Positions 6,768 to 54,866 of a DNA stretch of 64,000 nucleotides are shown here, in pieces. The notes beneath the pieces are model-generated. The model was not told where the DNA came from. It saw nothing but the letters and a program-made list of their open reading frames with translations, and searched no databases. Source of the DNA: Deltaproteobacteria bacterium (GTDB lineage Bacteria; Desulfobacterota; Desulfobaccia; Desulfobaccales; 0-14-0-80-60-11); NCBI GenBank assembly GCA_030018495.1, contig JASEFS010000002.1, forward strand, positions 75,359-139,358, written 5' to 3'. How positions within the stretch are numbered: position 1 is the first letter of the stretch; the number at the start of each line of letters is the position of its first letter. The position numbers and the translations under genes were made by a program.

Positions 6768-6769
6768 GG

Positions 6770-9181: not shown

Positions 9182-9344
9182 AATCTGAAAGAAACTGGGA
9201 AGCTTTACCAGGCCGGAAATTATCTCTCAATTATGCCCTTAACTGCTGATATTTGTGCCAAATTCAGTTCAAAAAGAAGGAAGTCAATTTACTTAAAAAA
9301 TTTTGATATGTCGTGGTTATTATCAATTGAGCCGCAGAGGGAGA

Positions 9345-9818: not shown

Positions 9819-9924
9819 AACGTCTTGGGAGACGCCGGTTTCTCACCGATCAGTTACGCTCGATCTACTTCACGGCTGGGTGCAAAACTCAGTCGGCAGT
9901 AAGGGCCTCCAGCAGAGGTGCTTT

Positions 9925-39730: not shown

Positions 39731-40387
39731 TCACCTCTTACTTTTTTTGGCCCCCATGACTGTTTGACCGTAATCGCAGTAAGGCAGGAGCGGGCATTTG
39801 GGGCATTTGGGGTTCCTGGAAGTGCAGATCTCCCGGCCGTGCCAGATCATCTGGTGGGAGAATTTGGTCCATTTTTCTTTGGGCACCAGCTCCATAAGTT
39901 CGAATTCGATCTTCACCGGGTCGGTTTGCTTGGTGAGCCCCAGGCGCTGGGCCACCCGGCCGCAGTGGGTATCCACTACGACGCCCGGGATGCCGAAGGC
40001 GTTTCCCAAGACGACGTTGGCGGTCTTTCGCCCCACTCCCGGCAGCTTCACCAGCGCCTCCAGGGAATCCGGCACCTGGCCGCCGTAGTTCTCCACCAGA
40101 GCCTGACAGAAGCCTTTGATGCTCTTGGCCTTGTTATGAAAAAAACCGGTGGGCCGAATGTCCTCTTCCAGTTCCTCCAGAGGCGCGTCGGCATATGCTT
40201 GGGCGTTAGGATATTTTTTGAACAACGTGGGCGTCACCTGATTGACGCGCACATCGGTGCATTGCGCCGACAGCACCGTGGCCACCACCAGTTCCAGGGG
40301 ATTGGTGAAATCCAGGGTGACATGGGCGTCGGCATAGTGCTTATCCAGAAGTTCAAGGATAGGCTTGATTTTTTCTTTCGGCTGCAT
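39731..40387 (-). CDS. nth: endonuclease III
   Basis: HhH motif LPGVGRKTANVVL and the 4Fe-4S cluster C-x6-C-x2-C-x5-C (CTSRNPKCPKCPLLPYC). Confidence 0.93.
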   Translation of the reverse strand: MQPKEKIKPILELLDKHYADAHVTLDFTNPLELVVATVLSAQCTDVRVNQVTPTLFKKYPNAQAYADAPLEELEEDIRPTGFFHNKAKSIKGFCQALVENYGGQVPDSLEALVKLPGVGRKTANVVLGNAFGIPGVVVDTHCGRVAQRLGLTKQTDPVKIEFELMELVPKEKWTKFSHQMIWHGREICTSRNPKCPKCPLLPYCDYGQTVMGAKKSKR

Positions 40388-40585: not shown

Positions 40586-42178
40586 TCACCGGCCCAGGCG
40601 GGCTTTTAATTCCTTCAGCAAGTCGCGCACTTCGGAAATTCTCAGCATCGGCACCAGCGCCATATAGAGAGCCGCACCCAGGACGATATTTCCTAACAGC
40701 AAGAAAATCTGAGTGAGCAGACCGCCCGGCCACCAGGCGATGGCCCGGCTGTAGCCGAAGTGCACCGCCATGGCCATGATCCCCGCGGCTGAAGTCACTT
40801 TCAGCATATTGACGGCCAAGCGCCTCACCCGAAAGCCGCCTACCTCCCGGTACAGCATGGCCCCCAAAAACAGCAGGTTCACCATCATGCTGAGGGAGGT
40901 GGACAGCGCGATGGCCCGATGCTGCAAGGCGGACAGGGTGAGGTTGATAAACAAAAGATTGGCCCCCACGGTGAGAAAGCTGCCCGCCACCGGGATGCGG
41001 GTATTGTTTAAGGCATAAAAGACCGGCACCAGGATTTTGACTCCCGCGAAGGCGAAGATGCCGATACTGTAAAGCATCAGGGCCGCGGCGGTCTGCCGGG
41101 TGTCCCAGGCGGTAAAACGGCCGTGCTGGAATATCACTGCGCTGATGGGTTCCGCCAGCACCATAAGGCCCAAGGCTGCAGGAATTTCCACCAGCAGGGC
41201 CAGGGACAGAGACGATTCGAAGGCCCGCTTAAGACTCGGGAAATCCCGCTGGGCCGCAAAGCGGGAGACCACCGGCAGGGTGGCCACGGACAAGGCCACC
41301 CCGAAAAGGCCCTGGGGCAGATGCACCAGGCGATAGGCGTAGTTCAGCCAGGAGACGCTGCCCTCCATGCAGCTCGAGGCATAAAAAGTGTTGATGAAGA
41401 CGTTGATCTGGGAGGCCGACAAGCCCACCACCGCGGGCAGCATGAGTTTTATGATTTGGCGCAGGCCTTCGTCTTTGAAGTCCAGCACGGGGGCCGCGCG
41501 GTATCCCACTTTGCGCAGCAGGGGAAACTGCACCGCCAACTGCAGCAGACCGCCTATGAGGGTTCCCCAGGCCATGCCCACAATGGCCGGCACTCCGAAA
41601 GCAGGCATCACCAGGCTCAGGGTCACGCCCGCCACGATGGAGCCCATATTAAAAAAGCTGGAGGCCAGGGCCGGGACGAAAAACTTGCCGCGGGCGTTCA
41701 AAATGCCCATGGCCAGAGCGGCCAGGGAGATGAGCAGCAAAAAGGGGAACATGATGCGGGTCATGAGGGTGGTAAGACCCAGCTTGCCCGAAACCAGACC
41801 GAAATCCGGGGCCATGAGCTCCACCAGGAAAGGCGAGGCCGCAATGCCCATAAGGGTTATGGCTCCCACCACCAGGAGGATGCAGGCCGCCACGTTGTTG
41901 GCCAGGCGCCAGGTCTGCGCCGGCCCCCGCTGGGTCTCATATCTGGTAAAAACTGTGACAAAAGCGGTGCTCAGCGCGCCTTCGGCAAACAGGTCCCGGA
42001 GCAGGTTGGGAATGCGAAAGGCCACCACAAAGGCGTCAATGGCATAGCCCGCGCCGAACAGACCGGCGAAGACCTGCTCCCGCACCAACCCTAGAACGCG
42101 GCTGGCAAGGACCGCCACGCTCATACTGCCCGCGGCCCGGGCGATGGTGCCGGTTTGCTGCTGGGAAGACTGGCTCAA
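40586..42178 (-). CDS. murJ: lipid II flippase MurJ
   Basis: 530 aa, polytopic, with an MviN/MurJ-type N-terminus (VLASRVLGLVREQVFAGLFGAGYAIDAFVVAFRIPNLLRDLFAEGALS). Confidence 0.9.
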   Translation of the reverse strand: MSQSSQQQTGTIARAAGSMSVAVLASRVLGLVREQVFAGLFGAGYAIDAFVVAFRIPNLLRDLFAEGALSTAFVTVFTRYETQRGPAQTWRLANNVAACILLVVGAITLMGIAASPFLVELMAPDFGLVSGKLGLTTLMTRIMFPFLLLISLAALAMGILNARGKFFVPALASSFFNMGSIVAGVTLSLVMPAFGVPAIVGMAWGTLIGGLLQLAVQFPLLRKVGYRAAPVLDFKDEGLRQIIKLMLPAVVGLSASQINVFINTFYASSCMEGSVSWLNYAYRLVHLPQGLFGVALSVATLPVVSRFAAQRDFPSLKRAFESSLSLALLVEIPAALGLMVLAEPISAVIFQHGRFTAWDTRQTAAALMLYSIGIFAFAGVKILVPVFYALNNTRIPVAGSFLTVGANLLFINLTLSALQHRAIALSTSLSMMVNLLFLGAMLYREVGGFRVRRLAVNMLKVTSAAGIMAMAVHFGYSRAIAWWPGGLLTQIFLLLGNIVLGAALYMALVPMLRISEVRDLLKELKARLGR

Positions 42179-42352
42179 GGGCTAAACCTGAGGGGGGATG
42201 ACCGGAATCGGAGAGCTCTTACGCCGGCGGACCGCATTGTTTGGATGCTTTTGGCTGAAGCAAAGGCGCTTTTCTCTCCATGAATAATCATAAAAAAAAC
42301 GACGAAGGGGCACTCGCCTGCAAGCTCTGCCCAAGAGGGCAGAGAGCAAATC

Positions 42353-42991
42353 CTAACGGAGGCTGTCTTGCCGTATAAGAGAGGAATACGTGCGTCGTAC
42401 CAGAATTGACTCGTTGGCGCTATCAGACTTATTTTTCTTAATCTGAAAATTATTGGCAGGCTTTTCTCTTTTCGCAGACTTGCTGGCTGTCTGGCGCTTT
42501 GGCATCCCGCTCTTTACCGGCCGCTTGATTTTGGGCCTTCTGGACGGGCTGACGGAAGAAGCGGGTTTTGCCGGCTCCAGCATGGGCGGGGTCTCCGGAT
42601 GAAGCAGGGCGTACGCCGGGTGTTCGCCTTGCCCCCCGTTGACAGGCGGCAGATTCTCCGCCGCAAGTTCGGCTTTAGCCGTCTTTAATTCCAGTTCAAA
42701 CCCTCCCAAGACTCCGGCTAGTCGCGGCGTCTGGTGAGGAGCAGGCGGAGAAAAGCCGAATACCAACAAAATCAGGCAGCCCAGAACCGCCGCGCCGCCG
42801 CTTAAAACCAGCCGGGGCGATTTGGCCCCATACCTTTCCCCTCTGAAATCTATCCTCCGATAGCGGGACCACAAGGTAAACAGGGCGTAGAGGCTGTATG
42901 CTCCAAAGACAAATAGCAGGGTAGGCAACAAGGGCATCCCTTCTATCGAGGCTGCCCCAAAATAACAGGTAAGAGTGGCAAAGTCAATCAT
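42353..42991 (-). CDS. hypothetical membrane protein with a basic C-terminal tail
   Basis: Two hydrophobic helices followed by a Lys/Arg/Ser-rich tail. No family recognised and the start is uncertain. Confidence 0.4.
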   Translation of the reverse strand: MIDFATLTCYFGAASIEGMPLLPTLLFVFGAYSLYALFTLWSRYRRIDFRGERYGAKSPRLVLSGGAAVLGCLILLVFGFSPPAPHQTPRLAGVLGGFELELKTAKAELAAENLPPVNGGQGEHPAYALLHPETPPMLEPAKPASSVSPSRRPKIKRPVKSGMPKRQTASKSAKREKPANNFQIKKNKSDSANESILVRRTYSSLIRQDSLR

Positions 42992-43054
42992 CTCTGTCTT
43001 AAAAAACTTTTCGGTGCAAGCTCACAAAGTCTTAAATTGTTTTGTGTCATATTA

Positions 43055-43082
43055 TTGACAGAGCCGATGCAATTAATATACC
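43055..43082 (+). promoter_or_regulatory. candidate sigma-70 promoter for the NtrC-type regulator
   Basis: TTGACA (43055-43060), a 16-nt spacer, then TATACC (43077-43082), just upstream of the ATG at 43095. Confidence 0.4.
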
Positions 43083-43094
43083 GTGAGGCCTGAT

Positions 43095-44513
43095 ATGGCC
43101 ACAATTTTAATTATCGAGGATGAGCGCGCCCAACGGGAAGCCCTGAAAGAAATACTGGCTGGCGAAGGCTATGAGGTGGAGACCGCGCCGGACGGCGAAA
43201 CCGGCTTGGCCAGGCTCCAGGAAACCGGGTTCGAGATAGTCTTGACCGACATGGCTTTGCCCGGCCTGGGAGGCATGGAAATCCTCAGGTACCTGGTGCG
43301 CCACCGGCCCGAAAGTCTGTGCATCATTGTCACCGGCTACGCCACCATCAAGAATTCGGTGGCCGCCATGCGCCTGGGAGCTTACGATTATCTGGCCAAA
43401 CCCGTGGACCCTCAGGAGCTCAAACTGGTGGTCAAACGGGCTTTGGAACGCAAACAATTGGAACAAGAAAACCTCCGTCTCAAAAAAAATCTGTACCGGC
43501 GGTTCGGCTTCGCCAATATCATCGGAACCAGTGAAGCCATCACCCAGGTCTTCGACCTTGTCAAAAAGGTGGCCGACACCGACGCCACCGTCCTGCTTCT
43601 GGGCGAATCCGGCACCGGCAAGGAGCTCATCGCCAAGGCCATCCACTATAACAGCCACAGGCGTCAAGGGCCGCTCATACCGGTGAACTGCGCCGCCATC
43701 CCCGAGGAACTGCTGGAAAGCGAACTCTTCGGCCACGAACGGGGGGCCTTCACCCACGCGGTGCGCACCCGCGTCGGCCGCTTTGAACAGGCCAACGGCG
43801 GCACCATCTTTCTCGATGAAATCGCTGATATGAGTCCGAGCCTGCAGGTCAAAATCCTGCGCGTCCTCCAGGACCGCGCCTTCGAGCGCATCGGCGGCGT
43901 CAAAACCATCAAGGTGGACATTCGGGTGATCGCGGCCACTAACCAGGATTTGGAGGACATGGTCGCCCAAGGCCGCTTCCGGGAAGACCTCTTTTACCGG
44001 CTCAATGTCATCCCCATCCGCATTCCCCCTCTCAGGGAGCGCACCTCGGACATTCCTCTCCTGACCTCCCATTTTCTCCAGGAATTCAGCCGCAAAAAAA
44101 AGAAGGCGCCAAAACGCCTGAGCCCCGGCGCCATGGACCTGCTTCTCCGCTACCCCTGGCCCGGCAATGTGCGGGAGTTGGAAAACCTGATGGAGCGCCT
44201 GGTCATCCTGTGCGAAGGCGAAGTCATCGAAGCCGTCGATTTGCCGGAGCGCTTCCGACCCGGGGCGCCGGCCGCGGCGATGCCAAAAACCATTGACTTT
44301 CCGGAGCAAGGCATCAACCTGGTCAGCGCGGTCCAGGAATTCGAGCGTTCCCTTATCCTCCGGGCCCTGGAAAATTGCCAGTGGGTCAAGAGCCGTGCCG
44401 CCCAGCTCCTGCATCTTAACCGCACCACTCTGATAGAGAAGATGAAGAAACAAAAGATTCAGCCGACCCCGGAACTTCACTCCCTGCCCAAGAGATTCCT
44501 CTATCGTCAATAA
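43095..44513 (+). CDS. sigma-54-dependent response regulator (NtrC family; canonical receiver)
   Basis: Receiver with DE (IIEDE), the phospho-Asp context IVLTDMALPG and DYLAKP. AAA+ Walker A GESGTGKE. The sigma-54 contact loop reads GAFTHA. C-terminal Fis-type HTH. Confidence 0.9.
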   Translation: MATILIIEDERAQREALKEILAGEGYEVETAPDGETGLARLQETGFEIVLTDMALPGLGGMEILRYLVRHRPESLCIIVTGYATIKNSVAAMRLGAYDYLAKPVDPQELKLVVKRALERKQLEQENLRLKKNLYRRFGFANIIGTSEAITQVFDLVKKVADTDATVLLLGESGTGKELIAKAIHYNSHRRQGPLIPVNCAAIPEELLESELFGHERGAFTHAVRTRVGRFEQANGGTIFLDEIADMSPSLQVKILRVLQDRAFERIGGVKTIKVDIRVIAATNQDLEDMVAQGRFREDLFYRLNVIPIRIPPLRERTSDIPLLTSHFLQEFSRKKKKAPKRLSPGAMDLLLRYPWPGNVRELENLMERLVILCEGEVIEAVDLPERFRPGAPAAAMPKTIDFPEQGINLVSAVQEFERSLILRALENCQWVKSRAAQLLHLNRTTLIEKMKKQKIQPTPELHSLPKRFLYRQ

Positions 44514-44564
44514 TCTGACAGTATCCCTCTTTTTGACGCGTCTTCCGCCTGGGTTCGCGGCCGC

Positions 44565-44592
44565 TGAATCGCAGGCCGGCAGCTTGAATCGC
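44565..44592 (+). promoter_or_regulatory. direct repeat TGAATCGC-N12-TGAATCGC, candidate activator binding site (UAS)
   Basis: Two identical octamers at 44565-44572 and 44585-44592, 20 bp apart, lying 25-55 bp upstream of the -24 element at 44618. Confidence 0.3.
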
Positions 44593-44617
44593 GGCTATTC
44601 CCCATCTGCCCTCCTCC

Positions 44618-44633
44618 TGGTACGAGTCTTGCT
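44618..44633 (+). promoter_or_regulatory. sigma-54 (-24/-12) promoter
   Basis: TGGTAC-GAGTC-TTGCT against the consensus TGGCAC-N5-TTGCW: one mismatch and correct spacing. Lies 24 nt upstream of the ATG at 44657, which follows CAGGAG. Confidence 0.7.
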
Positions 44634-44656
44634 CTCCCCAGGCTCAGGAGCATGCC

Positions 44657-44995
44657 ATGGGGATCAAAACACCGAGGCGCAATTGGTTGGGAGCCGGATT
44701 TTGGCTGGTCGCCGCGGTCTGCCTGGGACTTCTGATTCGCCCCTGCCCCACCCAGACTGCCGAGAAGCCGGAGCCGGGTTCTTATGTCATCCTTTCCGGG
44801 GAATTCTTCAACGCCATGCAGAAACTGGCCGCCTCCGGCGCCACCTATGGGGACCGCCAGGAGCCTCTGTTGGAGCAGATCGCGTTGTCCGGCCGATACA
44901 TGGTCAAGACAAATCTTACGCTCATCCACCAGAATGAAAAAATAATACAGCTTCTCGAAGAGCTCAACCGCAAACGGCTGACCATGGAACGTTGA
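44657..44995 (+). CDS. small exported/membrane-anchored protein, unknown function
   Basis: 112 aa. The N-terminal hydrophobic segment WLGAGFWLVAAVCLGLLI is followed by a helical region. It is the first gene behind the sigma-54 promoter. Confidence 0.55.
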   Translation: MGIKTPRRNWLGAGFWLVAAVCLGLLIRPCPTQTAEKPEPGSYVILSGEFFNAMQKLAASGATYGDRQEPLLEQIALSGRYMVKTNLTLIHQNEKIIQLLEELNRKRLTMER

Positions 44996-44996
44996 G

Positions 44997-46286
44997 ATGT
45001 CGGCGCTTCGTTTTGTTTGGTTTTTGCTGGTGTGTGTTCTGTTGATCGCCCTTGCTTGGGCCGACTGCGCCTGGGGGCGCGCCAGCCAGGGGCCTTCACC
45101 GAAACCCCGCGTCCATGCCGCCGATAAGAGCTATTCAGATACCGCCTCATACCGGTCATTTTTGGGTCTGCTGAAGATTGCCAATGTTTCCCCCAACAAG
45201 GGCGAGCGTCTCGCCGCTCTCCTGCGGCTGGGCGGCCGGGCTGAGACCCAGGGTCGCATCGACTTGGCCGTGAAAGTCTATACTTTGGCCACCCTTCTCC
45301 ACCCCGACAGCCATGAAGTCGGCCAGGCCGGCTGCCGCCGCCTTGTCCTGCAATTTTATCTGGACCTGGGCGGCGCTGAACCTTATCAGGCCTTCAAGAA
45401 TTTTTTGGCAAAAATTTCCGCGTTGTCCGAACAACCTGCCCGGGAACAGCTTCAGATGCCATTTTTGGCCGGTTGGCATGCCGTGGAGCAGTCTATCCAC
45501 AACGGCAATTTTGCTGATTCCGTTTGGTTGGAAAGAGCATTAGTTCTGTGGGAAATGCACCCGCCGGGGACCCAGCCGCCGCAAGCCGCGCTTTTAGTGG
45601 GCCGGCTCCTGGGAAAACAGGGCCTTTTCACTGAGGCGGGCAAGTTCCTGGCCATAGCTCTCGATAAAGGCGACAGCCGCATCCGCTCCCGGACCATTAT
45701 GGAATATTTGCAAATGGCCTGGGCCGCTGATGGCATTTCTGGGTTTATGGAGGCTCTGGCACGATGGCGGCAGGATTCCCGTCACCTGGTTCAGGCCCTC
45801 CAAACCTGGCCGCTGCGCCTCTGTTCCCCGGACGGCGCCGAGTCGAAGCTGAGCCCTGATTATGTCAATAATTTGACAGAACTGCTTCCCCAGTGCCCTT
45901 CTCCTCCCGAACCGCAATCTCTTCTCACCATCGGTGATGAGCCCTTGTGGATGGCTCTCCTCAGCCAACCTTTGCCGGCCCTGCTTGAGGAGTACCTTGT
46001 CCAAAGCCTGGCCCGACGATTTTGCTCCCAGGCGAACTTCTCCCAGGCTTCCCGGCTCTACCGAACTCTTCTGGCGGACGCGGCCGATAAAGAGACTTCA
46101 TGTTTCTATTGGGACCGCCTGGGGCAATTGCATATCAAGGAACAACAGCCCGCTTTGGCCCGGGATATTTTTCGAACCCTGGCGGGCGAGCCGACTAAAC
46201 TCTGGCAGCTCCTGGCCCAAACCAGGCAGCTTGACGTGGAACTTAACCGGCTCAGGGCGGAGCCGGCCTTTATGACGGAAGGATGA
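44997..46286 (+). CDS. exported helical-repeat (TPR-like) protein, unknown function
   Basis: 429 aa. Signal/anchor MSALRFVWFLLVCVLLIALAWA. The body is Leu/Ala-rich and helical. Its ATG lies 1 nt after the upstream stop. Confidence 0.55.
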   Translation: MSALRFVWFLLVCVLLIALAWADCAWGRASQGPSPKPRVHAADKSYSDTASYRSFLGLLKIANVSPNKGERLAALLRLGGRAETQGRIDLAVKVYTLATLLHPDSHEVGQAGCRRLVLQFYLDLGGAEPYQAFKNFLAKISALSEQPAREQLQMPFLAGWHAVEQSIHNGNFADSVWLERALVLWEMHPPGTQPPQAALLVGRLLGKQGLFTEAGKFLAIALDKGDSRIRSRTIMEYLQMAWAADGISGFMEALARWRQDSRHLVQALQTWPLRLCSPDGAESKLSPDYVNNLTELLPQCPSPPEPQSLLTIGDEPLWMALLSQPLPALLEEYLVQSLARRFCSQANFSQASRLYRTLLADAADKETSCFYWDRLGQLHIKEQQPALARDIFRTLAGEPTKLWQLLAQTRQLDVELNRLRAEPAFMTEG

Positions 46287-46290
46287 TTGA

Positions 46291-47667
46291 ATGGGAAGCA
46301 AGGCCATCTTGGTGATCGACCCTCACCCTTTTTGGCGGGAAGTTAAGCCCAGGCTGGAAAAAACCCTTCAACTTGAACTGGTTCATGAGGATGCCGCGGT
46401 CTGCCTGGAGGAGGTTATGGCCAGCAAATTCTTCGCCATGGCTTTTATTTCCGAGTCATTGGCAGACCGAGCCTTGGGGGCCATCAAGCTGAAATTTCCG
46501 CTGCTTCCGGTGCTGGTGGTGACCTCCCGCCCCAGCGTCCAAGGCGCGGTGGCCGCCATGCGGGAGGGGGCCCAGGATTATCTGGCCCTGCCCCTGGCCT
46601 TCGAAAAACTCCGGGAGGTCATCCAGCCTGCACTCATCGGCGGGGACAACCACTGCTCTTCATGTAAAAATAAAACCGCGGACAACGGCCGGGTCCGTCC
46701 CGTCATCACCCGCAATCCTGCCATGCTGCACATTCTGCGACTGGCCGAAGCCGTGGCCCCGACCCGGGCCACCGTCCTCATCCAGGGGGAATCGGGCACG
46801 GGCAAGGAAATCCTGGCCCGTTACATCCACAGCAAAAGCGACCGCGCTGCCGGACCCTTTGTCGCGGTAAATTGCGCCGCGTTGCCGGAGGGGCTCCTGG
46901 AAAGCGAACTCTTCGGGCATGAAAAGGGCGCCTTCACCGGCGCCATCATGCGCAAACTGGGGAAGTTCGAACTGGCCCAAAACGGCACGCTGCTCTTGGA
47001 TGAAATCAGCGAAATGCATCCACACTTGCAGGCCAAGCTTTTGCGGGTCCTCCAGGAAAACGAAATCGACCGGGTGGGCGGCCGCCACGCCATACCCATT
47101 AATGTCCGGGTAATGGCCACCACCAACCAAAACCTTCCTGAAGTAATCCAGAAAGGCGGCTTCCGGGAGGATTTGTATTATCGCCTGCAAGTCATTTCTT
47201 TTGAGTTGCCGCCTCTCAGGGCCCGCCGGGATGACATCCCGCTTTTGGCCCGGCATTTCCTGCAGCACTTCTGCCGCCTGTTTGAGAAAGGCGCTCTAAA
47301 CTTCACCGCCGCCGCGCTGAGCGCCCTGGAAACGGCCCCCTGGCCGGGCAATGTCAGACAGTTGGAAAACGCCGTCGCCCGAGGGGTGCTCCTGGCCCAG
47401 AGTCCCAATCTTCATCCCCGGGATCTTTTCGGCGCCCTTCCGCCGGAAGCCGCAACCGCTTTGACTCCGGCCCTGCCGAACGGCAAACCGGTCACCTTAA
47501 GAGAGATGGAGCAGCAGATGATATTTACCACCTTGAATGAAACTTCGGGAAACCGCACCCACGCGGCCCGGCTTCTGGGCATCAGCGTGCGCACCTTGCG
47601 AAACAAGCTGCACGAGTACCGCCAGGAAGCCCTGGCCCAGACCTGCCGCCGTTCCCAGGTGGCCTGA
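46291..47667 (+). CDS. sigma-54-dependent activator with a degenerate receiver (FleQ/FlrA/FgrM-like flagellar regulator)
   Basis: The N-terminal receiver-like fold lacks the phospho-acceptor context (AMAFISESL instead of xxxxxD) and the conserved Lys (DYLALP). AAA+ GESGTGKE, canonical GAFTGA and a C-terminal HTH. Sits directly upstream of flgB. Confidence 0.8.
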   Translation: MGSKAILVIDPHPFWREVKPRLEKTLQLELVHEDAAVCLEEVMASKFFAMAFISESLADRALGAIKLKFPLLPVLVVTSRPSVQGAVAAMREGAQDYLALPLAFEKLREVIQPALIGGDNHCSSCKNKTADNGRVRPVITRNPAMLHILRLAEAVAPTRATVLIQGESGTGKEILARYIHSKSDRAAGPFVAVNCAALPEGLLESELFGHEKGAFTGAIMRKLGKFELAQNGTLLLDEISEMHPHLQAKLLRVLQENEIDRVGGRHAIPINVRVMATTNQNLPEVIQKGGFREDLYYRLQVISFELPPLRARRDDIPLLARHFLQHFCRLFEKGALNFTAAALSALETAPWPGNVRQLENAVARGVLLAQSPNLHPRDLFGALPPEAATALTPALPNGKPVTLREMEQQMIFTTLNETSGNRTHAARLLGISVRTLRNKLHEYRQEALAQTCRRSQVA

Positions 47668-47675
47668 TATTTGCT
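47660..47675 (+). promoter_or_regulatory. sigma-54 (-24/-12) promoter overlapping the activator stop codon
   Basis: TGGCCT-GATAT-TTGCT: GG and GC at the correct spacing and a full TTGCT -12 box. The TGA stop of the upstream gene is inside it. flgB starts ~220 nt downstream. Confidence 0.55.
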
Positions 47676-47896
47676 TTCCAAGTGCTGGTGGCCGGCAGAA
47701 ATGCGCCGCAAAAACAGGAGGGTTCTTATGCTTTTAAAAAATTCTTTCATTCAAATCGCCGTATTGGACAGGCTGACCGGCAGCTGCGGCGCTGCCGCCA
47801 GGTTCTGCCTGCAAGCCCCGCTCAGGGTCCTTATCCAAAACTTTAACGGCAGCTAGGCAAAATCTTCCTGTTTACCTTTTTACCCGGGAGTAAAAG

Positions 47897-48283
47897 ATGC
47901 CCTGGAACCCTTTCCAAGACAATCTGATTGACATCCTGGAGCATTCCCTCACCTGGCAAAGTCGCCGCCATGAGATCATTGCCGGGAACGTCGCCAACCT
48001 GGATACGCCTAATTACACCGGCAAGGAATTGGATTTTAAAGCTTTACTGGCAGGTTATGCAAACGGCGGCCCCCGGGTGCGCCTGACTGCCACCCATCCC
48101 GGCCATATTCAAGGCGAGCTCAGCACTCCGGCAGGATTTGTTCAAGACACGGGTAAAGCCGTGGACATTGATCGGGAAATGGTGGCAATGGCCGAAAACC
48201 AGCTTTCCTTTCAGGCCTCCGCACAGATGCTCGGCAAGAAACTGGAGGGTCTGAGAACCGTAATCGAAGGAGATCGGCGATGA
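47897..48283 (+). CDS. flgB: flagellar basal-body rod protein FlgB
   Basis: 128 aa with the rod-protein N-terminal motif (IIAGNVANLDTPNY). First gene of a flgBC-fliE block. Confidence 0.88.
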   Translation: MPWNPFQDNLIDILEHSLTWQSRRHEIIAGNVANLDTPNYTGKELDFKALLAGYANGGPRVRLTATHPGHIQGELSTPAGFVQDTGKAVDIDREMVAMAENQLSFQASAQMLGKKLEGLRTVIEGDRR

Positions 48284-48702
48284 ATATTTTCACCACTATG
48301 GAAATCAGCGCCTCAGGCCTGACGGCCCAGCGCCAGCGGTTAAACGTGATCGCCGAAAATCTGGCCAATGCCCACACCACGCGTACGCCCCGAGGGGGTC
48401 CCTATTTGCGCAAACACGTGGTTCTGGAGACGCGCCCGGCCGTGGAATTTGCCAGCTTTTTGGAAACTGCGGATAAAGTGGCCGTGGCCGACATTGTGGA
48501 AAGCCGGGAAGGCTTGCGCCCGGAATATGATCCGAACCATCCCGATGCCGATGAACAGGGTATGGTACTCTGGCCCAATGTCAATCCGGTGGTCGAAATG
48601 GTCAGTCTTACCCTGGCCAGCCGGGGCTTTGAGGCCAATGTCGCCGTCTTTCAGGCGGCCCGGGCCATGGCCTTGAAGGCCTTGGAAATCGGACGCGGCT
48701 AA
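48280..48702 (+). CDS. flgC: flagellar basal-body rod protein FlgC
   Basis: MEISASGLTAQRQRLNVIAENLANAHTTRT. Overlaps flgB by 4 nt. Confidence 0.92.
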   Translation: MNIFTTMEISASGLTAQRQRLNVIAENLANAHTTRTPRGGPYLRKHVVLETRPAVEFASFLETADKVAVADIVESREGLRPEYDPNHPDADEQGMVLWPNVNPVVEMVSLTLASRGFEANVAVFQAARAMALKALEIGRG

Positions 48703-48740
48703 TCCCAAGAGCGGGAATACCCTCTTAAAAGGTGCCCCCT

Positions 48741-49022
48741 ATGAAAGTTTCAGCGCCTGATATCCTCGCCCTATTTCCCTTGCCCGGTTTTGAGCCTGAC
48801 CGGGCCTCCTCCGGATCGGGCCTCTTTTCAAAGGTATTGGCGGAAGTCAACGACTTGCAGCACCGGGCCGACGCCAAAATCAAGGACTCCCTTTTGGGTC
48901 GAGCCGACCTTCATGAAACCATGCTTGCCATGGAAAGGGCCAGTCTGGGGCTAAAGGTCCTGGTCCAGGCCCGCAATAAGTTGGTCCAGGCCTATGAGGA
49001 ACTGAGCCGCATGAACATGTAA
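48741..49022 (+). CDS. fliE: flagellar hook-basal body complex protein FliE
   Basis: C-terminal VQARNKLVQAYEELSRMNM is the FliE signature. The likely start is the ATG at 48741. Confidence 0.88.
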   Translation: MKVSAPDILALFPLPGFEPDRASSGSGLFSKVLAEVNDLQHRADAKIKDSLLGRADLHETMLAMERASLGLKVLVQARNKLVQAYEELSRMNM

Positions 49023-49040
49023 TTATCAGCCCGGGTGAAT

Positions 49041-50702
49041 ATGGTGGATTCCCTGAAAAAAATCTGGATCGATCTGCAGCAGCGCTTCCTGGGCCTGCCC
49101 CCGGCCCAGCGCTTTTTGATTGCAGGTCTGGCCGGGGCTGCCTTGTTGGCCCTTGTGTTATTCGGCGTTCTCCGCACGGGTGGCGATTACGCCGCGCTCT
49201 TCACCAATCTTTCCCAGGACGATGCCGCCGGCATTGTCGCCAAACTGAAAGGGAAAAAAATCCCCTACCGCCTGGAGGCCGGGGGCACCGCCATCCTGGT
49301 GCCCCGCAGCGAAGTTTACGAAACCCGCCTCCTTCTGGCCAGCGAGGGCATGCCCCGGGGCGGCGGTGTGGGTTTCGAGATTTTCGACCGGCAAAACCTC
49401 GGGGTTACGGATTTTGTCCAGCGCCTGAATTATCAGCGGGCCTTGCAGGGGGAGCTGGCCCGCACCATCATCGGCATCCCCGAAATATCCGAAGCCCGGG
49501 TCCATATCGTCACGCCCAAGGAATCGCTGTTCATCGAGGACCAGCAAAAAGCCACCGCCTCGGTCGCGGTCAAGCTGCGCCCCGGTCGCATCTTGAGCCG
49601 CGCCCAGATTGACGGCATCGTGCATCTCGTCGCCAGCGCCGTCCCCGGTCTGCACCCCGGCCAGGTGACGGTGGTGGACTTGGACGGGCGTATTTTGAGC
49701 CGTTCCGAGGACAGCTTGACCCCTGGCGGCCTGAGTGCCGGGCAATTGACCATTCAACGCCAGGTGGAGGAAAGCTATGAGCACAAGCTGCAGTCGCTTT
49801 TCGATAGTATGCTGGGGGCAAGAAAATCCTTTGTTAGAGTTTCAGCGGACCTGGATTTTCAGAAAATCGACATCCGGGAAGAAACCTTTACCCCCAACCA
49901 GGACCTGATACGCAGCGAGCAAAAGACCTTGGAACGCACCACCCGGGCTCATGAGGGGTTTGGCAACCCGGAGGCCCGTTTTGACCTGAGTCAGGGAACC
50001 ATTACGCCCCCACCCCCCGGCAAGGGGCCACCGCCGCTGACTCCCCCGGCTCCTGTAAAACCTCCTGCGGCCAGCGGCACCGAGCGGCAAAGCGAATTGC
50101 GCAATTATGAAATAAACCGGGTCTTGCGCCAGGTAGTGGAGCAGCCCGGCAAGATCAAACGGCTGTCCATCGCCGTGGTGGTGGACGGCACTTATAAAGG
50201 CAAAGCTGACGCTTTCACCCCAAGAACTCCTGAAGAAATGCGGCAGTTCGCCAATTTGGCGAAGAAAGCCGTGGGCTTCAGCGTCGATCGGGGAGACCAA
50301 TTGGAGATTTCCTGCGCCCCGCTGGCCTTGCAGGCGCCTGACGGAGTGGTTGCCACCAGCACCATGGGCTGGCAGGAAGGCCTGTTTTCCACCTTGAAAA
50401 TCGGCTTGCTGATATTGGCCGTCCTGCTGGGCTTGATGTTCTTTCTCAAAAGGAAGCCCCTGCGAACCAGGCCCACCCTGTTGGAAGGTCCGCCTGCGTC
50501 CGTTCTCCCACCCCGGCCTAAACCGATGGCTTCCTTGCCCGAGGAGATGAACAGGACCCCTGGCTTGCCCGGCGGGGAACCCCAGGTGGCTTTGCCGGAT
50601 GCCGTGGCCGGGCAGGAACTTATCGGACAATTGATTACCTCCTATCCGGAGCGGACCATCGAGGTTCTGCGGCTCTGGCTCAACGATAAAGAAACCCGAT
50701 GA
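49041..50702 (+). CDS. fliF: flagellar M-S ring protein FliF
   Basis: ~550 aa with an N-terminal TM, YscJ/FliF domain (KIPYRLEAGGTAILVP, NYQRALQGELARTI) and a C-terminal TM. Confidence 0.92.
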   Translation: MVDSLKKIWIDLQQRFLGLPPAQRFLIAGLAGAALLALVLFGVLRTGGDYAALFTNLSQDDAAGIVAKLKGKKIPYRLEAGGTAILVPRSEVYETRLLLASEGMPRGGGVGFEIFDRQNLGVTDFVQRLNYQRALQGELARTIIGIPEISEARVHIVTPKESLFIEDQQKATASVAVKLRPGRILSRAQIDGIVHLVASAVPGLHPGQVTVVDLDGRILSRSEDSLTPGGLSAGQLTIQRQVEESYEHKLQSLFDSMLGARKSFVRVSADLDFQKIDIREETFTPNQDLIRSEQKTLERTTRAHEGFGNPEARFDLSQGTITPPPPGKGPPPLTPPAPVKPPAASGTERQSELRNYEINRVLRQVVEQPGKIKRLSIAVVVDGTYKGKADAFTPRTPEEMRQFANLAKKAVGFSVDRGDQLEISCAPLALQAPDGVVATSTMGWQEGLFSTLKIGLLILAVLLGLMFFLKRKPLRTRPTLLEGPPASVLPPRPKPMASLPEEMNRTPGLPGGEPQVALPDAVAGQELIGQLITSYPERTIEVLRLWLNDKETR

Positions 50703-50738
50703 TTCTCACTTTTTGACCGGAAAGGACCCGGGAAAATT

Positions 50739-51755
50739 GTGGCAGCCAAAACCGACAAGCTGAGCGGGTTGGACAAAGCGGCGCTCTTGCTTCTGAGTTT
50801 GGGAGAAGGCCAGGCCGGAGAAATTCTCAAGCGTCTGGATGACAAGGAAGTGCAGCTTCTGGGCCAGCGCATCTCCAAAATGGAAATAGTATCAACCAAG
50901 CAGATGGCCGCTATTCTTCAGGAATTCCGGCAAATGATGGAATCTCCTGAAGCCATTGTGGTCAAAGGAGACCAGTTTTTTAAGAACACCATCTCCCGCA
51001 CCATGGACGCCAATCGCCAGGAAAAGCTCATGGACAAGTTGGACTTGGAACAAAGCCCTGAATTTTTTCAGAAAATCAAAAAGTTGGATTCCCGCACCCT
51101 GGCGTCTTTTCTAGGCAATGAACATCCGCAGACCATCGCCCTGGTGCTGGCGCATTTGGACAGAAATCAGGCCGGCGGCGTTTTGGCGCAATTCTCCGAA
51201 AATATGCAACTGGAAGTAGTGCGGCGCATCGCCAGCCTGGACCAGGTATCCCCGGCCATAATTGAAGAAATCGACGCGGCCTTGAGAAACGAAATTACCC
51301 TGGTGGAAGAAGTGGGAGGCCGTCTGGTGGGGGGACCGCAATCCGTGGCGGAAATATTGAACCAGATGGAGCGCACCCAGGAAACCAGCATTTTGAAACG
51401 TCTCGAAGAAGAGGGTCAGGAGGATCTGGCCGAGGAAATCCGCCGCTACCTGTTCACTTTCGAGGACCTCCTGGGGGTGGAAGATCGGGGCATCATGGCG
51501 CTGCTTAAGGAAACCAACACACAGGATTTGGCTTTGGCCCTCAAAGCTGCCTCGGACGAACTGAAGGCAAAATTCTTCAGAAACATGTCCAGCCGCGCCG
51601 GGGAGATGCTGCAGGAGGAGCTGGACCTCATGGGACCGGTTAGACTCCGGGATGTGGAGGCGGTCCAGCAAAAGATCATCCAGATCGCCAAGCGCCTGGA
51701 AACCGAAGGACAGTTGGTGCTGGCCGGCAAGAGCGTTGAAGATATCTTTATCTAA
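50739..51755 (+). CDS. fliG: flagellar motor switch protein FliG
   Basis: LSGLDKAALLLLSLGE N-terminus and the MSSRAGEMLQEEL motif. 338 aa. Confidence 0.93.
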   Translation: MAAKTDKLSGLDKAALLLLSLGEGQAGEILKRLDDKEVQLLGQRISKMEIVSTKQMAAILQEFRQMMESPEAIVVKGDQFFKNTISRTMDANRQEKLMDKLDLEQSPEFFQKIKKLDSRTLASFLGNEHPQTIALVLAHLDRNQAGGVLAQFSENMQLEVVRRIASLDQVSPAIIEEIDAALRNEITLVEEVGGRLVGGPQSVAEILNQMERTQETSILKRLEEEGQEDLAEEIRRYLFTFEDLLGVEDRGIMALLKETNTQDLALALKAASDELKAKFFRNMSSRAGEMLQEELDLMGPVRLRDVEAVQQKIIQIAKRLETEGQLVLAGKSVEDIFI

Positions 51756-51769
51756 AGGTGTTCCCAACT

Positions 51770-52471
51770 ATGGTAAGCGGAAACATCGAAGCCTTCAGGT
51801 TCCCGGTTATCGAGGGAGATACGGGCTTGTCGCGGCCTGATGCCGACGGTTTCATTTTGCAAGCCTTCGACGGCAATGTCCCCTCCCGCACATTTCTTTC
51901 GGAAAAAGAGCTTATCAGCATGAGCGAACGCATTCTGGCGGAGGCTGAGGAAAAGCGTCAGCACATCGAACAGACGGCTTACGAGGAGGGTTTCCGCCAG
52001 GGTCAGAAAGACGGCCAGGAAGTGGGCCGTCGCGGACTGGAGGAAGTAATTCAGCGTTTTGAGACCCTGTTGGACGCCCTGGTAAGGGAAAAGGAGGTTT
52101 TATATCATCAGCGGGAACATGATTTGGTGGAATTGGTCCGGCTGATCGCCCGGAAAGTCGTCGGGCGGGAACTGACCCTTCATCCCGAGGCCATTCGCGA
52201 TCTGGTGGCGTGCGGCTTTGAGACCCTGTTCCAAGCCGAGCAGATTACGCTCCTGGTTCATCCTCAGGATTATGAACTTTTGATTCATGATTCTAAAGAG
52301 TCCTGGCCTCCAGGTCTGTCACTGGTTTCGGACAGCTCGGTCTGCCCCGGCGGTTTCAGATTGGAAACCGAACAGGGGGGCCTGGACGGCACCCTGGAAG
52401 GACGTTGGGCACGGGTAGACCAGGCGATTGACGAGATCTTGGGAAAAGCAGATGCAGACGGGGCCGCTTAA
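51770..52471 (+). CDS. fliH: flagellar assembly protein FliH
   Basis: Position between fliG and fliI. Charged coiled-coil followed by a FliH/YscL-type C-terminal domain. Start is 51758 (GTG) or 51770 (ATG). Confidence 0.75.
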   Translation: MVSGNIEAFRFPVIEGDTGLSRPDADGFILQAFDGNVPSRTFLSEKELISMSERILAEAEEKRQHIEQTAYEEGFRQGQKDGQEVGRRGLEEVIQRFETLLDALVREKEVLYHQREHDLVELVRLIARKVVGRELTLHPEAIRDLVACGFETLFQAEQITLLVHPQDYELLIHDSKESWPPGLSLVSDSSVCPGGFRLETEQGGLDGTLEGRWARVDQAIDEILGKADADGAA

Positions 52472-53777
52472 CTGGCAGGATTTGCACCGGTCGGTGGAGG
52501 AAATCGAAACCATCGCCTTCACCGGGCTGGTCGAGGAGATGGTCGGCCTGGTCATCAAGAGCAAGGGGCCTCATGCCCCGGTGGGCGCGGTCTGCCGCGT
52601 GGAGCTGCGGTCCTCTTCGACGGCCGTGCCTGCAGAAATTGTGGGATTCCGCCAGGACCAGGTTCTGCTTATGCCTTATGGCGAGGTGCGCGGCATTAAA
52701 CCGCAAACGCGCCTGATTCTTACGGCCCGTCAATCCAGAGCCCCTGTGGGAGAAGGATTGCTGGGCCGGGTCATCGATGGTCTGGGCAGACCATTGGACG
52801 GCAAAGGACCTCTGAAATTGACGGAGAACCGACTGCTGCACGCTCCTCCTCTGAATCCCTGCAGCCGCCGGAATATCGACCAGCCGGTGGACGTGGGCAT
52901 ACGCGCCATTAACGCTCTGCTCACTTTGGGGAAGGGGCAGCGCATCGGCATCTTTGCCGGCTCCGGGGTGGGCAAAAGCACCCTGATGGGCATGATGGCC
53001 CGCTACACCCACTCGGACGTGAACGTCATCGGCCTTATCGGGGAACGGGGTCGGGAAGTCAAGGAATTCATTGACCGGGATTTGGGACCCGCCGGGCTGG
53101 CCCGCTCCTGTGTGGTGGCATCCACTTCCGACACCCCGCCTCTGGTGCGTCTGCGCGGGGCTTATCTGGCCACAACCATTGCCGAATATTTCCGCGACCA
53201 GGGCAAAGACGTCATCCTGATGCTCGATTCCCTCACCAGGTTTGCCATGGCTTCCCGGGAGATCGGCTTGGCCATCGGCGAACCTCCCACGGCCCGGGGC
53301 TACACTCCTTCGGTCTTCAACCAGTTGCCCAAACTTCTGGAACGGGCCGGGGCCTGTCAGGAAACAGGAAGCATAACCGGCATTTACACGGTCCTGGTGG
53401 AAGGCGATGATCTTTTGGAACCCATTGCCGACGCCAGCCGCGCCATTCTGGACGGGCACATCGTGCTGAGCCGGGAGCTGGCCGACCAGGGTCACTATCC
53501 CGCCATTGATATTTTGGGCAGCATAAGCCGCCTTATGCCCCAAGTTTCGCCGCCTGAGCAACTTAAACTCCGGGAGGAGCTTGTCAAAGTGATGGCCGCC
53601 TACCGCCGGGCCGAAGACCTGGTCAACATCAACGCTTATGTGCAGGGCTCCAATCCGGAGATTGATTACGCCCTGGAAAAAATCGGTTCAGTCCGGGAAT
53701 TCCTCCGTCAGGGAATGACTGAGAGCGTTTCCCTGTCACAAGCCAGAAAAGAACTTGAGGATCTGTTCAGGCCATGA
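52452..53777 (+). CDS. fliI: flagellum-specific ATP synthase FliI
   Basis: Walker A GSGVGKST and Walker B ILMLDSLTRFA. F1-ATPase beta-like. Confidence 0.93.
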   Translation: MQTGPLNWQDLHRSVEEIETIAFTGLVEEMVGLVIKSKGPHAPVGAVCRVELRSSSTAVPAEIVGFRQDQVLLMPYGEVRGIKPQTRLILTARQSRAPVGEGLLGRVIDGLGRPLDGKGPLKLTENRLLHAPPLNPCSRRNIDQPVDVGIRAINALLTLGKGQRIGIFAGSGVGKSTLMGMMARYTHSDVNVIGLIGERGREVKEFIDRDLGPAGLARSCVVASTSDTPPLVRLRGAYLATTIAEYFRDQGKDVILMLDSLTRFAMASREIGLAIGEPPTARGYTPSVFNQLPKLLERAGACQETGSITGIYTVLVEGDDLLEPIADASRAILDGHIVLSRELADQGHYPAIDILGSISRLMPQVSPPEQLKLREELVKVMAAYRRAEDLVNINAYVQGSNPEIDYALEKIGSVREFLRQGMTESVSLSQARKELEDLFRP

Positions 53778-54232
53778 TTACCCGCGGCCGGTTTCGCTTT
53801 TCCCTGGAAACAGTGCTTCGCGTTCGGATATTGCGGGAAGAACAAGCGCGCCTGGAACTGGTCCAGGCCTTGGCACTCCTTGAGCGGCACCGCTTGTCTC
53901 TAAAAGAAACCGAGCGGCTTTTGGCCGAGGAGATGCACGCCTGGCGCAGCGCCATGCCCCGCGCCGTCACGATTCAGGATTACCGGATCCGGGCCGGCTA
54001 TCTGGAGCACCTGAAAGGCGCCATACAGGACTGGCAACTCCGGATCAACCGGCAAAAAGCGGAAGTAGAGGCAAAACAGCGGCGGGTGCAGCATCTTTAT
54101 CGAGAGCGGCGCCTGCTTGCCAATCTCAGGGATAAGCAATACCTGCGCTTCAAACGGGAGCTGGCCAGGGGCTTGGAAAAAGAAGCGGAAGCCGCGGTAC
54201 TGTCGCGTTGGCCCGGAAACGCAATATTTTGA
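53774..54232 (+). CDS. fliJ: flagellar export chaperone FliJ
   Basis: 152-aa coiled-coil protein overlapping the fliI stop by 4 nt. The position is conserved. Confidence 0.7.
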   Translation: MITRGRFRFSLETVLRVRILREEQARLELVQALALLERHRLSLKETERLLAEEMHAWRSAMPRAVTIQDYRIRAGYLEHLKGAIQDWQLRINRQKAEVEAKQRRVQHLYRERRLLANLRDKQYLRFKRELARGLEKEAEAAVLSRWPGNAIF

Positions 54233-54299
54233 AGCATGGAGCGGCCTTAGAAAAAGAATCAGGGTCCCTGAAAAATCAGGCTTCAAGGCTGGAGGAAGT

Positions 54300-54866
54300 A
54301 TGCAAAGCGCTCATGGAATTCCGTGGCCGGGTTGGCATCTCATGCAAGCCCTGCTGGTGGGAGGATTGGTGCTCAAGTTGGCGGTTTCAGGGCTTTGCCT
54401 GGCTCCGACAGCCTTGTGGGACTGGGCCGGACCCAAGGTGAGCGAAGCCGCCACCCATGCCGCCGGCCCGGCGGACAGCCCCCCGTCTTTGCCCCGCCTG
54501 TTCAGCCTGATGCACCAGGAACGCTCAGCCCTCCAGGCCAGGGCCTCGGCTGTGGCGGTGAAGGAGGAACAACTGCGCATTCTCCAGAAGGAGGTGGAGG
54601 ATCGGCTTCAGGAGCTCAAGGGACTACAACTTAAAATTTTGGACTTGATGGAGGAGGAAAAGCGCATCAAACACGAACACAACCGCCATCTGGTTTCAAC
54701 CCTGACGGCCATGCCCGCGGACAGGGCCGCCAGGCTGCTGGAAAAAATGGAGGAAGAGACGGCGGTAATGCTGCTCCGAAATCTCAAGGGCAAAGAGGCG
54801 GGCGCCATCCTGGCGGTGCTCTCTCCGGACAAAGCCGCCCGGTTAAGTCAGCGGCTCCTGCAATAG
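54300..54866 (+). CDS. MotE/YlxF-like flagellar protein (MgtE-N-type domain)
   Basis: GGAGGAAGT precedes the ATG at 54300. N-terminal TM, coiled-coil, then C-terminal PADRAARLLEKMEEETAVMLLRNLKGKEAGAILAVLSPDKAARL. Confidence 0.6.
   Translation: MQSAHGIPWPGWHLMQALLVGGLVLKLAVSGLCLAPTALWDWAGPKVSEAATHAAGPADSPPSLPRLFSLMHQERSALQARASAVAVKEEQLRILQKEVEDRLQELKGLQLKILDLMEEEKRIKHEHNRHLVSTLTAMPADRAARLLEKMEEETAVMLLRNLKGKEAGAILAVLSPDKAARLSQRLLQ

Follow-up and report, generated by a model that had tools for sequence, protein, structure and literature searches.

We analysed a 64-kb stretch of DNA (hereafter the window) from a metagenome-assembled 'Deltaproteobacteria bacterium', in which the flagellar genes flgBC-fliEFGHIJ are preceded by two genes for sigma-54 activators, EBP1 (regulator 1) and EBP2 (regulator 2), with two genes for exported proteins between them. 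A first-pass annotation made from the sequence alone had described these genes and their tight spacing, two sigma-54 promoters and an TGAATCGC direct repeat, and all of them lie where that annotation placed them. The genes, the states of their domains, and the motifs with their conservation and geometry are read directly from the sequences compared here. The features on which the argument turns are as follows.

43045-43060, no strand assigned: palA, TGTCATATTATTGACA, a FleQ/DVU2894-type palindrome overlapping the -35 hexamer of EBP1
43055-43084, plus strand: sigma-70-like promoter of EBP1, TTGACA, 18-nt spacer, TACCGT (TAnnnT)
43095-44513, plus strand: EBP1 (Pfam REC, Sigma54_activat and HTH_8)
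44505-44520, no strand assigned: palB, CGTCAATAATCTGACA, overlapping the EBP1 stop codon (44511-44513)
44530-44539, plus strand: third half-site, TTTTTGACGC, 17-21 bp past the second half-site of palB
44565-44572 and 44585-44592, plus strand: the TGAATCGC direct repeat, whose two copies in the window are both here
44618-44633, plus strand: promoter P1, TGGTAC-N5-TTGCT, TGGTACGAGTCTTGCT, predicted start near 44644
44657-44995, plus strand: open reading frame (ORF) of 112 aa, one N-terminal hydrophobic segment
44997-46286, plus strand: TPR-like ORF of 429 aa (NCBI locus tag QME75_01650)
45863-45878, no strand assigned: intragenic site, TGTCAATAATTTGACA, within the TPR gene, the best FleQ/DVU2894-type match
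46291-47667, plus strand: EBP2 (Pfam Sigma54_activat and HTH_8, no REC match)
47660-47675, plus strand: promoter P2, TGGCCT-N5-TTGCT, TGGCCTGATATTTGCT, predicted start near 47686
47856-47868, no strand assigned: GGCAAAATCTTCC, GGCA-N5-TkCC, an FlbD (ftr)/DVU1063-type site 41 nt before the flgB ATG
47897-54232, plus strand: flgB, flgC, fliE, fliF, fliG, fliH, fliI and fliJ (Pfam; rod, MS ring, rotor and export ATPase)

Our search of 5.8 billion proteins with the TPR-like protein revealed 11 protein clusters, and in all 11 every contig that carries the gene shows identical synteny. A search for EBP2 homologues added three loci of the same layout: L013, whose EBP2 is identical to a protein assigned by UniRef to Desulfobacca acetoxidans; L014, a second lineage; and L015 (NCBI GCA_964428565.1), a distant relative whose EBP2 is 54% identical to that of the window. 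Scanning GTDB genomes for further loci returned one species, the same as that of locus L008. The locus is widespread in Desulfobaccales and related Thermodesulfobacteriota and conserved across this order-level group, and EBP1 has more than 120 homologue clusters at an identity of at least 72%.

The predicted sigma-54 promoters P1 and P2

P1 and P2 are well supported as sigma-54 promoter motifs. Candidates were defined by GG and GC 10 nt apart within the context TGGCAC-N5-TTGCW, a pattern that both have. With a weight matrix derived from 87 published D. vulgaris promoters (PMC4641369 supplement; training median 16.7 bits), P2 (16.9 bits) and P1 (16.0 bits) were the best and second-best of about 128,000 window positions. 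The earlier placement of P1 at 44618 and of P2 at 47660, in a stop codon, holds. In a control with shuffled windows, scores of at least 16.0 bits were reached in 3 of 20. The loose pattern TGG-N8-TTGCW was found 11 times in the window against 6.8 expected, which is no enrichment, and the consensus motif by itself therefore proves little.

P1 is kept in all 12 related loci, with TGGTA and TTGCT invariant in the spacer alignment and the -12 GC lying 24-27 nt before the start codon. P2 is kept in all nine Desulfobaccales-clade loci that reach this point, as far as Desulfobacca acetoxidans, in the form GTGGCCTGA-N-TTGCT, and is absent from the distant L015. It overlaps the last codons of EBP2 and its TGA stop (47665-47667), and its conservation covers the third-codon positions of ...GTG GCC TGA as well as the non-coding TTGCT. 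When the spacer between EBP1 and the 112-aa gene was aligned from 12 loci, invariance was limited to GTCAA...TGAC, another TTGAC, TGGTA...TTGCT, and the ATG together with its ribosome-binding site. Apart from P1 and P2, no non-coding block is invariant except the binding sites and the ribosome-binding sites.

One could suppose that these motifs are non-functional look-alikes and that transcription comes from sigma-70 promoters or by read-through from EBP1, a view that the lack of enrichment of the loose sigma-54 consensus would favour. However, P1 and P2 hold the top two matrix scores in the window, their nucleotides are conserved with fixed geometry in otherwise diverged spacers of 9-12 loci, and two sigma-54 activators are encoded on the spot, which makes this explanation scarcely credible.

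No other sigma-54 promoter was identified nearer to flgB, upstream of EBP1, or between the 45863 site and EBP2. A minus-strand sigma-54-like match at 43067 (11.7 bits), directed towards the divergent neighbouring gene, was rejected as its -12 element is missing in L004, L006 and L009. We likewise discarded the idea that P2 has its enhancer within the EBP2 3' end, where a codon-level alignment has no conserved synonymous positions besides the last codons that form the -24 element. The P2 leader is 210 nt long in the window, about 150 nt longer than that of Desulfobacca (61 nt from the -12 element to the ATG). A 42-aa ORF with an AGGAGG ribosome-binding site in this leader (47729-47857) was also set aside, as the ORFs of relatives lie in other frames and have unrelated sequences.

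EBP1 and the FleQ-type sites

Both regulators match the sigma-54 activator family (Pfam Sigma54_activat, E 1e-74 for EBP1 and 8e-69 for EBP2) as well as HTH_8, and the sequence shows the GESGTGKE and DE motifs. The EBP1 receiver is canonical (Pfam PF00072, E 1e-27), and E8-D9, D52, T80 and K102 are invariant in 10 of 10 orthologues, in keeping with its earlier description as a phospho-accepting NtrC-type regulator. When searched alone, its AAA+ domain has as best PDB matches the FleQ chains of P. aeruginosa (314-317 bits), with FlrA at 298 bits; full-length EBP1 matches the AAA+ domain of FlrC with 254 bits. The C-terminal 80 aa are best matched in the PDB by FleQ 429-480, and the recognition helix reads NRTTLIEKMKK in EBP1, RRTTLVEKMRK in FleQ and KRTTLIEKLKK in D. 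vulgaris DVU2894 (the last from the PMC4641369 supplement). EBP1 further shares with DVU2894 the loop GAFTHA (PMC4641369), which is kept in 119 of its 120 best homologues. The window's sole histidine kinase, of the GAF-PAS type, lies about 31 kb away at 9772-11988, and the absence of an adjacent kinase had been noted correctly in the first pass. Judged by its sequence, EBP1 is a FleQ/FlrA/DVU2894-type activator with a live receiver and an orphan response regulator without an adjacent kinase.

FleQ binds cyclic di-GMP (c-di-GMP) through R144, R185, R334 and E330 (PMC10723142). The EBP1 residues that align with FleQ R144, R185 and N186, which contact c-di-GMP or ATP, are A, K and A, and the FleQ 330-334 stretch aligns, less reliably, with S..K of EBP1. 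In two respects EBP1 falls outside the definition of the FleQ family, which asks for a phosphorylation-incompetent N-terminal domain and for c-di-GMP-binding residues. No fleN/flhG gene was identified within the window.

The FleQ consensus of P. aeruginosa is GTCaNTAAAtTGAC (PMC6120874), and it matches palA and palB. For DVU2894 the motif yGTCA-N6-TGACr has been predicted, and all orthologues have it ahead of their own gene (PMC4641369), with TGTCA-N6-TGACA at -46 to -116 of these genes (PMC4641369 supplement). We built a DVU2894-type matrix from 20 published sites, and its top three matches in the window are at 45863 (22.4 bits), 44505 (palB, 20.4 bits) and 43045 (palA, 20.1 bits), the next scoring 14.0 bits. 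The simple pattern GTCA-N6-TGAC occurs five times in the window against 0.7 expected. In 10 of the 11 related loci scanned, palA and palB are the top two matches or two of the top three. L015 has palB and is without palA, and L003 does not reach palA and has a palB of only 11.4 bits.

The palindrome palA, which the first-pass annotation had overlooked on the EBP1 promoter, precedes the EBP1 start by 45-49 nt in 10 of 11 loci and is presumed to be an autoregulatory site. EBP1's own sigma-70-like promoter has an 18-nt spacer in the window and a 17-nt spacer in most relatives, and the TAnnnT spacing is kept across loci; our consensus promoter scan did not list it, its -10 element being weak. The promoter ends 10 nt before the ATG in the window and 6-11 nt before it over all loci, several of which lack a Shine-Dalgarno sequence before EBP1. 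Given this short distance, the EBP1 mRNA is probably leaderless or nearly so.

The second palindrome, palB, was found in 12 of 12 loci, and the TTGAC of the third half-site is likewise invariant in all 12. The centre of palB is 107 bp away from the -24 GG of P1 in the window and 142 bp away in L015; nine loci have 115-120 bp, among them L004 and L006, for which P1 was read from the spacer alignment. This conservation and position identify palB as the likely upstream activating sequence of P1, a conserved enhancer. The first-pass annotation had assigned this role to the TGAATCGC repeat, as the site of regulator 1, and had made regulator 2 the FleQ-like master of a hierarchy inverted relative to Vibrio and Pseudomonas. 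In its favour, the repeat is found just twice in the window, with its copies 20 bp apart between the enhancer and P1, and the receiver of regulator 2 is dead, like that of FleQ. However, the repeat lies in an unconserved stretch of the spacer and is not kept beyond the closest relatives in the 12-locus alignment, where the elements flanking it are invariant; it is only about 25-55 bp from the -24 element; and the AAA+ domain, helix-turn-helix and motif make regulator 1 FleQ-like and regulator 2 FlbD-like. We estimate that about 0.17 repeats of some 8-mer are expected by chance in a 150-bp spacer. The repeat is probably not the enhancer of P1, a part that passes to palB with the third half-site, and the earlier scheme as a whole is very improbable.

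Only the window, L001 and L011, the three closest genomes, have the strong 45863 site, whose underlying peptide is VNNLT; it may be an additional enhancer of recent origin or a coincidence of coding sequence. A further match to GTCA-N6-TGAC, CGTCACCTGATTGACG at 40232-40247 in the endonuclease III gene, scores 12.5 bits and recurs in L004 and L006, and is probably conserved as coding sequence.

EBP2, the exported proteins and the site before flgB

In the EBP2 receiver, the phospho-acceptor position holds S, A or G and the Lys position L, A, V or P in all eight clade orthologues aligned, and we infer that the domain is inactive for phosphorylation, in agreement with the dead receiver proposed earlier. 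The label FleQ-like that was attached to EBP2 did not survive comparison. A PDB-wide search with its helix-turn-helix returned no FleQ match, its loop is GAFTGA, and its best NCBIfam model is FlbD (NF050807; 413 bits, under the cutoff of 750). EBP2 is 47% identical to Caulobacter FlbD, and 21 of 24 helix-turn-helix residues are identical. These likenesses characterize EBP2 as an FlbD-type sigma-54 activator with a dead receiver, as far as its sequence allows a class to be assigned. No match to the FliX family (Pfam or NCBIfam) was found among the proteins scanned in and around the locus. In L008 (9364-10698; metagenome-assembled genome JRI59 / Meg22_1214_Bin_315), a deletion with a frameshift removes the start of the EBP2 helix-turn-helix, which is either an assembly error or a mark of a pseudogene.

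The ftr site of FlbD is CCCGGCA-N5-TGCCGGG (PMC3333781), and DVU1063 sites are 13-bp GGmA-N5-TkCC elements that often lie 40-70 bp downstream of sigma-54 promoters (PMC4641369). In D. vulgaris, flgB has a sigma-54 promoter at -91 and GGCAACGTCTGCC at -41, and its operon has been assigned to DVU1063 (PMC4641369). With a DVU1063-type matrix from 85 published sites, the window's own site 41 nt before flgB, which had also escaped the first pass, scores 18.0 bits and ranks third of about 64,000 positions. The predicted P2 start is about 170 nt upstream of it. In eight of nine clade loci the best site in the leader is at -30 to -41 of flgB, the only flagellar promoter examined for sites of this type. 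We presume this to be a binding site of EBP2. Another 18-bit match of the DVU1063 type was observed at 14432 (GGCATATTTTTCC), and an ftr-like 18-bit match at 45407 in the TPR gene (GGCAAAAATTTCC) was rejected, its nucleotide sequence not being conserved.

Within 400 bp of P2 through flgB, eight loci contain no FleQ-type box with at most one mismatch, and in 10 loci the intergenic regions flanking EBP1 yielded no ftr-type site. The two types of site do not appear to mix, FleQ-type sites being found at EBP1 and P1 and the ftr-type site at flgB. A rival idea is that EBP2 regulates itself, by binding palB and activating P1, and that EBP1 is an unrelated neighbour or a mere target of repression at palA. 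Master regulators often autoregulate, and palB does lie upstream of the operon that contains EBP2. Yet the EBP2 helix-turn-helix has no FleQ similarity PDB-wide, the best match of EBP1 being FleQ; the palindromes belong to a motif class predicted for the GAFTHA-type DVU2894, and GAFTHA is the loop of EBP1, that of EBP2 being GAFTGA; and in 12 loci the palindromes keep strict synteny with the EBP1 gene. We therefore give this idea very little credence.

The first-pass annotation had called the 112-aa and 429-aa proteins exported and the larger one a helical-repeat protein, and both statements are borne out. The 112-aa protein has a hydrophobic segment at residues 9-27 (a signal peptide or signal anchor), and its gene is syntenic in 11 loci and absent in L015. 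The 429-aa protein has one N-terminal hydrophobic segment, and its AlphaFold model is all-helical (pLDDT 79). Searching the PDB with this model returned generic TPR solenoids only, so that the protein is best described, from its model, as an exported TPR-like solenoid of confident but generic fold. A specific flagellar homologue was sought and discarded, the Campylobacter motor scaffold chain reaching merely rank 29 with a TM-score of 0.17, and neither protein matches a Pfam or NCBIfam family. We can imagine the two proteins, instead of being parts of the flagellum, as the missing input to EBP2, forming an envelope or assembly checkpoint that takes the role of FliX from the periplasmic side and shares with EBP2 an operon dependent on EBP1, and we regard this as improbable. 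If true, a phosphorylation-gated FleQ-type switch would deploy an FlbD-type checkpoint module, with the promoter in the EBP2 stop codon closing a feed-forward loop, a logic undescribed for any flagellar hierarchy.

A proposed cascade and its relation to known hierarchies

We consider it reasonably likely that the locus encodes a two-tier sigma-54 cascade for early flagellar genes, with a FleQ-type top regulator and an FlbD-type second regulator. EBP1 would be transcribed from its own sigma-70-type promoter, probably with autoregulation through palA, and would be phosphorylated on D52 by an unlinked kinase. Once phosphorylated, EBP1 would bind palB together with the third half-site, at a centre about 130 bp before the start predicted for P1, and from there activate sigma-54 RNA polymerase at P1. 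The P1 transcript would cover the 112-aa, TPR and EBP2 genes and probably read through into flgB, since no convincing terminator lies between; matches to intrinsic terminators between the units are weak consensus matches only. EBP2, which would not be open to phosphorylation, is predicted to bind the GGCA-N5-TkCC site 41 nt before flgB and to activate P2, which would boost flgBC-fliEFGHIJ and complete a coherent feed-forward loop. The pairing of proteins with sites, the sign of each interaction, the phosphorylation step and the read-through are what we infer in this scheme.

Of the two-tier cascade proposed in the first pass, the two conserved promoters in series stand, each now with its own type of site, and the labels and order of the regulators do not. 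Since regulator 1, and not regulator 2, is of the FleQ type, the order is not inverted; by homology the FleQ-type regulator appears to stand above the second activator, as in Pseudomonas and Vibrio. The inverted reading arose because the FleQ label had been put on the wrong protein.

Several points weigh against the proposed cascade, and the main uncertainty is whether EBP2 at the -41 site activates rather than represses. The distance from this site to P2 is not kept (about 35 nt in Desulfobacca, about 180 nt in the window); being fixed instead to the flgB start codon, the site would fit a repressor or a role at the RNA level as well as it fits an enhancer. Its right half is degenerate in L001, L003 and L014. 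In D. vulgaris, DVU1156 has a helix like that of EBP2 and a different predicted motif, and DVU1063 has a helix-turn-helix that differs from that of EBP2, so that similarity in this element is not fully predictive of site type. The sequence compared with EBP2 as that of FlbD was identified as such only by its score on the NCBI FlbD model, 829 bits (cutoff 750). Finally, GAFTHA in EBP1 is a non-consensus form of the sigma-54 contact loop, and the activator function of EBP1 is a prediction.

An alternative with a single activator has FlbD-style feedback. In it EBP1 drives P1 with read-through into flgB and may also act on P2 from far away, for instance from the 45863 site, and EBP2 represses or acts as a roadblock at the -41 site and activates only later flagellar genes elsewhere. 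In Pseudomonas and Vibrio, genes of the fliE-J class depend on FleQ or FlrA. The fixed position of the -41 site relative to flgB rather than P2 would suit this alternative, as would the strong FleQ-type site inside the TPR gene, and FlbD itself represses the early fliF operon through ftr4 (PMC3930126). It would also agree with L015, where the synteny is kept (5745-10416) without the 112-aa gene, palA or P2 and flgB starts 45 bp past EBP2, so that P1 alone would serve flgB. On the other hand, the eight loci without a FleQ-type box within 400 bp of P2 argue against it, the 45863 site being confined to three close relatives. The D. vulgaris flgB-fliI operon, with the same layout of promoter and site, is assigned to the activator DVU1063. 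Moreover, a conserved sigma-54 promoter requires an activator, and EBP2 alone has a site nearby. On balance this alternative is possible, if unlikely, and we continue with the two-tier cascade.

In L015 the EBP2 receiver also retains the acceptor Asp and the Lys. Together with the absence of P2 and the position of flgB 45 bp after EBP2, this suggests an ancestral single operon transcribed from P1, and the L015 arrangement is likely to be the ancestral state. The comparison further suggests that the stop-codon promoter and the decay of the receiver arose together within the Desulfobaccales clade.

The closest known system is the conjectured DVU2894/DVU1063 pair of Desulfovibrio, and the locus recombines known modules. 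For D. vulgaris Hildenborough, our sources of comparison were Rajeev 2011 (PMC3333781) and Kazakov 2015 (PMC4641369). Kazakov et al. predicted two flagellar activators, DVU2894, a FleQ/FlrA-like protein that has a GAFTHA loop and lacks an N-terminal domain, and DVU1063, which is FlbD-like with an atypical receiver and a regulon that includes flgB-fliI (PMC4641369). D. vulgaris and the present locus thus share two sigma-54 flagellar activators, one FleQ-like (GAFTHA, RTTLIEK helix) and one with an atypical receiver; a flgB operon with a sigma-54 promoter and a DVU1063-type site at -41; and a TPR protein gene beside that operon (DVU0318 in D. vulgaris, under DVU1063). They differ in that EBP1 has a complete canonical receiver, unlike DVU2894, and in that D. 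vulgaris has its two activator genes unlinked, with DVU1063 missing from the regulon predicted for DVU2894. In the present locus, by contrast, a FleQ-type box and a sigma-54 promoter stand directly before the operon of the second activator, next to flgB, and P2 lies inside the stop codon of that activator.

As in the FleQ-to-FleSR and FlrA-to-FlrBC orders of Pseudomonas and Vibrio, a FleQ-type regulator at the top would activate, at a sigma-54 promoter, the gene of a second sigma-54 activator. However, FleQ and FlrA have phosphorylation-incompetent receivers, unlike the live one of EBP1, and FleQ works with FleN. The second tier there consists of a kinase and a phosphorylatable regulator (FleSR, FlrBC), whereas here it is the kinase-less EBP2 with its dead receiver; relative to these systems, the receiver states appear from the sequences to be swapped between tiers. 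The fliE-J genes are first-tier targets in Pseudomonas and Vibrio and apparently second-tier targets here.

In Caulobacter (CtrA above FlbD/FliX), a phosphorylated response regulator at the top likewise controls the expression of FlbD. FlbD resembles EBP2 as a phosphorylation-independent sigma-54 activator with GGCA-N5-TGCC sites, some of them downstream of promoters. Unlike EBP1, CtrA is of the OmpR type and acts at sigma-70 promoters, not as a sigma-54 activator; FlbD activates late genes and is a repressor of the early fliF operon; and its partner FliX has no detectable homologue here. The Geobacter regulator FgrM is reportedly controlled by a His-Asp phosphorelay, which would parallel the EBP1 receiver. 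In G. sulfurreducens, fgrM is not known to lie next to flgB, and we know of no description of an FlbD-type second tier for FgrM.

To our knowledge, the sigma-54 hierarchy of flagellar genes is established for only a few Proteobacteria and Campylobacterota. At this locus classical phosphorylation would control a FleQ-type core for DNA binding and ATPase activity that lacks c-di-GMP-binding residues, and this core would feed directly into an FlbD-type regulator whose phosphorylation site has been lost. The 5-kb stretch gives unusually explicit cis-evidence for a link merely conjectured in Desulfovibrio, and the model is testable because Desulfobacca acetoxidans, which has the same layout, is cultured. 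The stake is a modest one, namely how anaerobic sulfate reducers and syntrophs decide on building flagella, and from which kinase the orphan master regulator receives its signal.

Around these elements, the window contains the following neighbouring genes.

40586-42178, minus strand: MurJ
42353-42991, minus strand: 212-aa hypothetical protein without a family match
54117-54866, plus strand: ORF with an MgtE_N domain (Pfam MgtE_N), the last gene of the cluster

The 212-aa divergent gene adjoins EBP1 in all loci that reach it and shares with it the palA-containing spacer, so it might be co-regulated with EBP1. A conserved CTTTTCGG block was observed directly before its start. The true start of the MgtE_N ORF is probably later than 54117; its TTG start, which overlaps fliJ, was judged too early because orthologues are 187-188 aa long. 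This ORF has a weak NCBIfam match (E 0.005) to the spirochaete collar protein FlbB. No flagellar genes outside this cluster were found within the window, and a scan of 42300-48400 against Rfam gave no credible RNA family.

Elsewhere in the window, a BglII-family restriction endonuclease lies beside an N6/N4 DNA methylase (22551-24106, minus strand), forming a type II restriction-modification pair. At 1554-9181, a PBP1C-type penicillin-binding protein comes after a bacterial alpha-2-macroglobulin of 1737 aa, a pairing that has been described previously.

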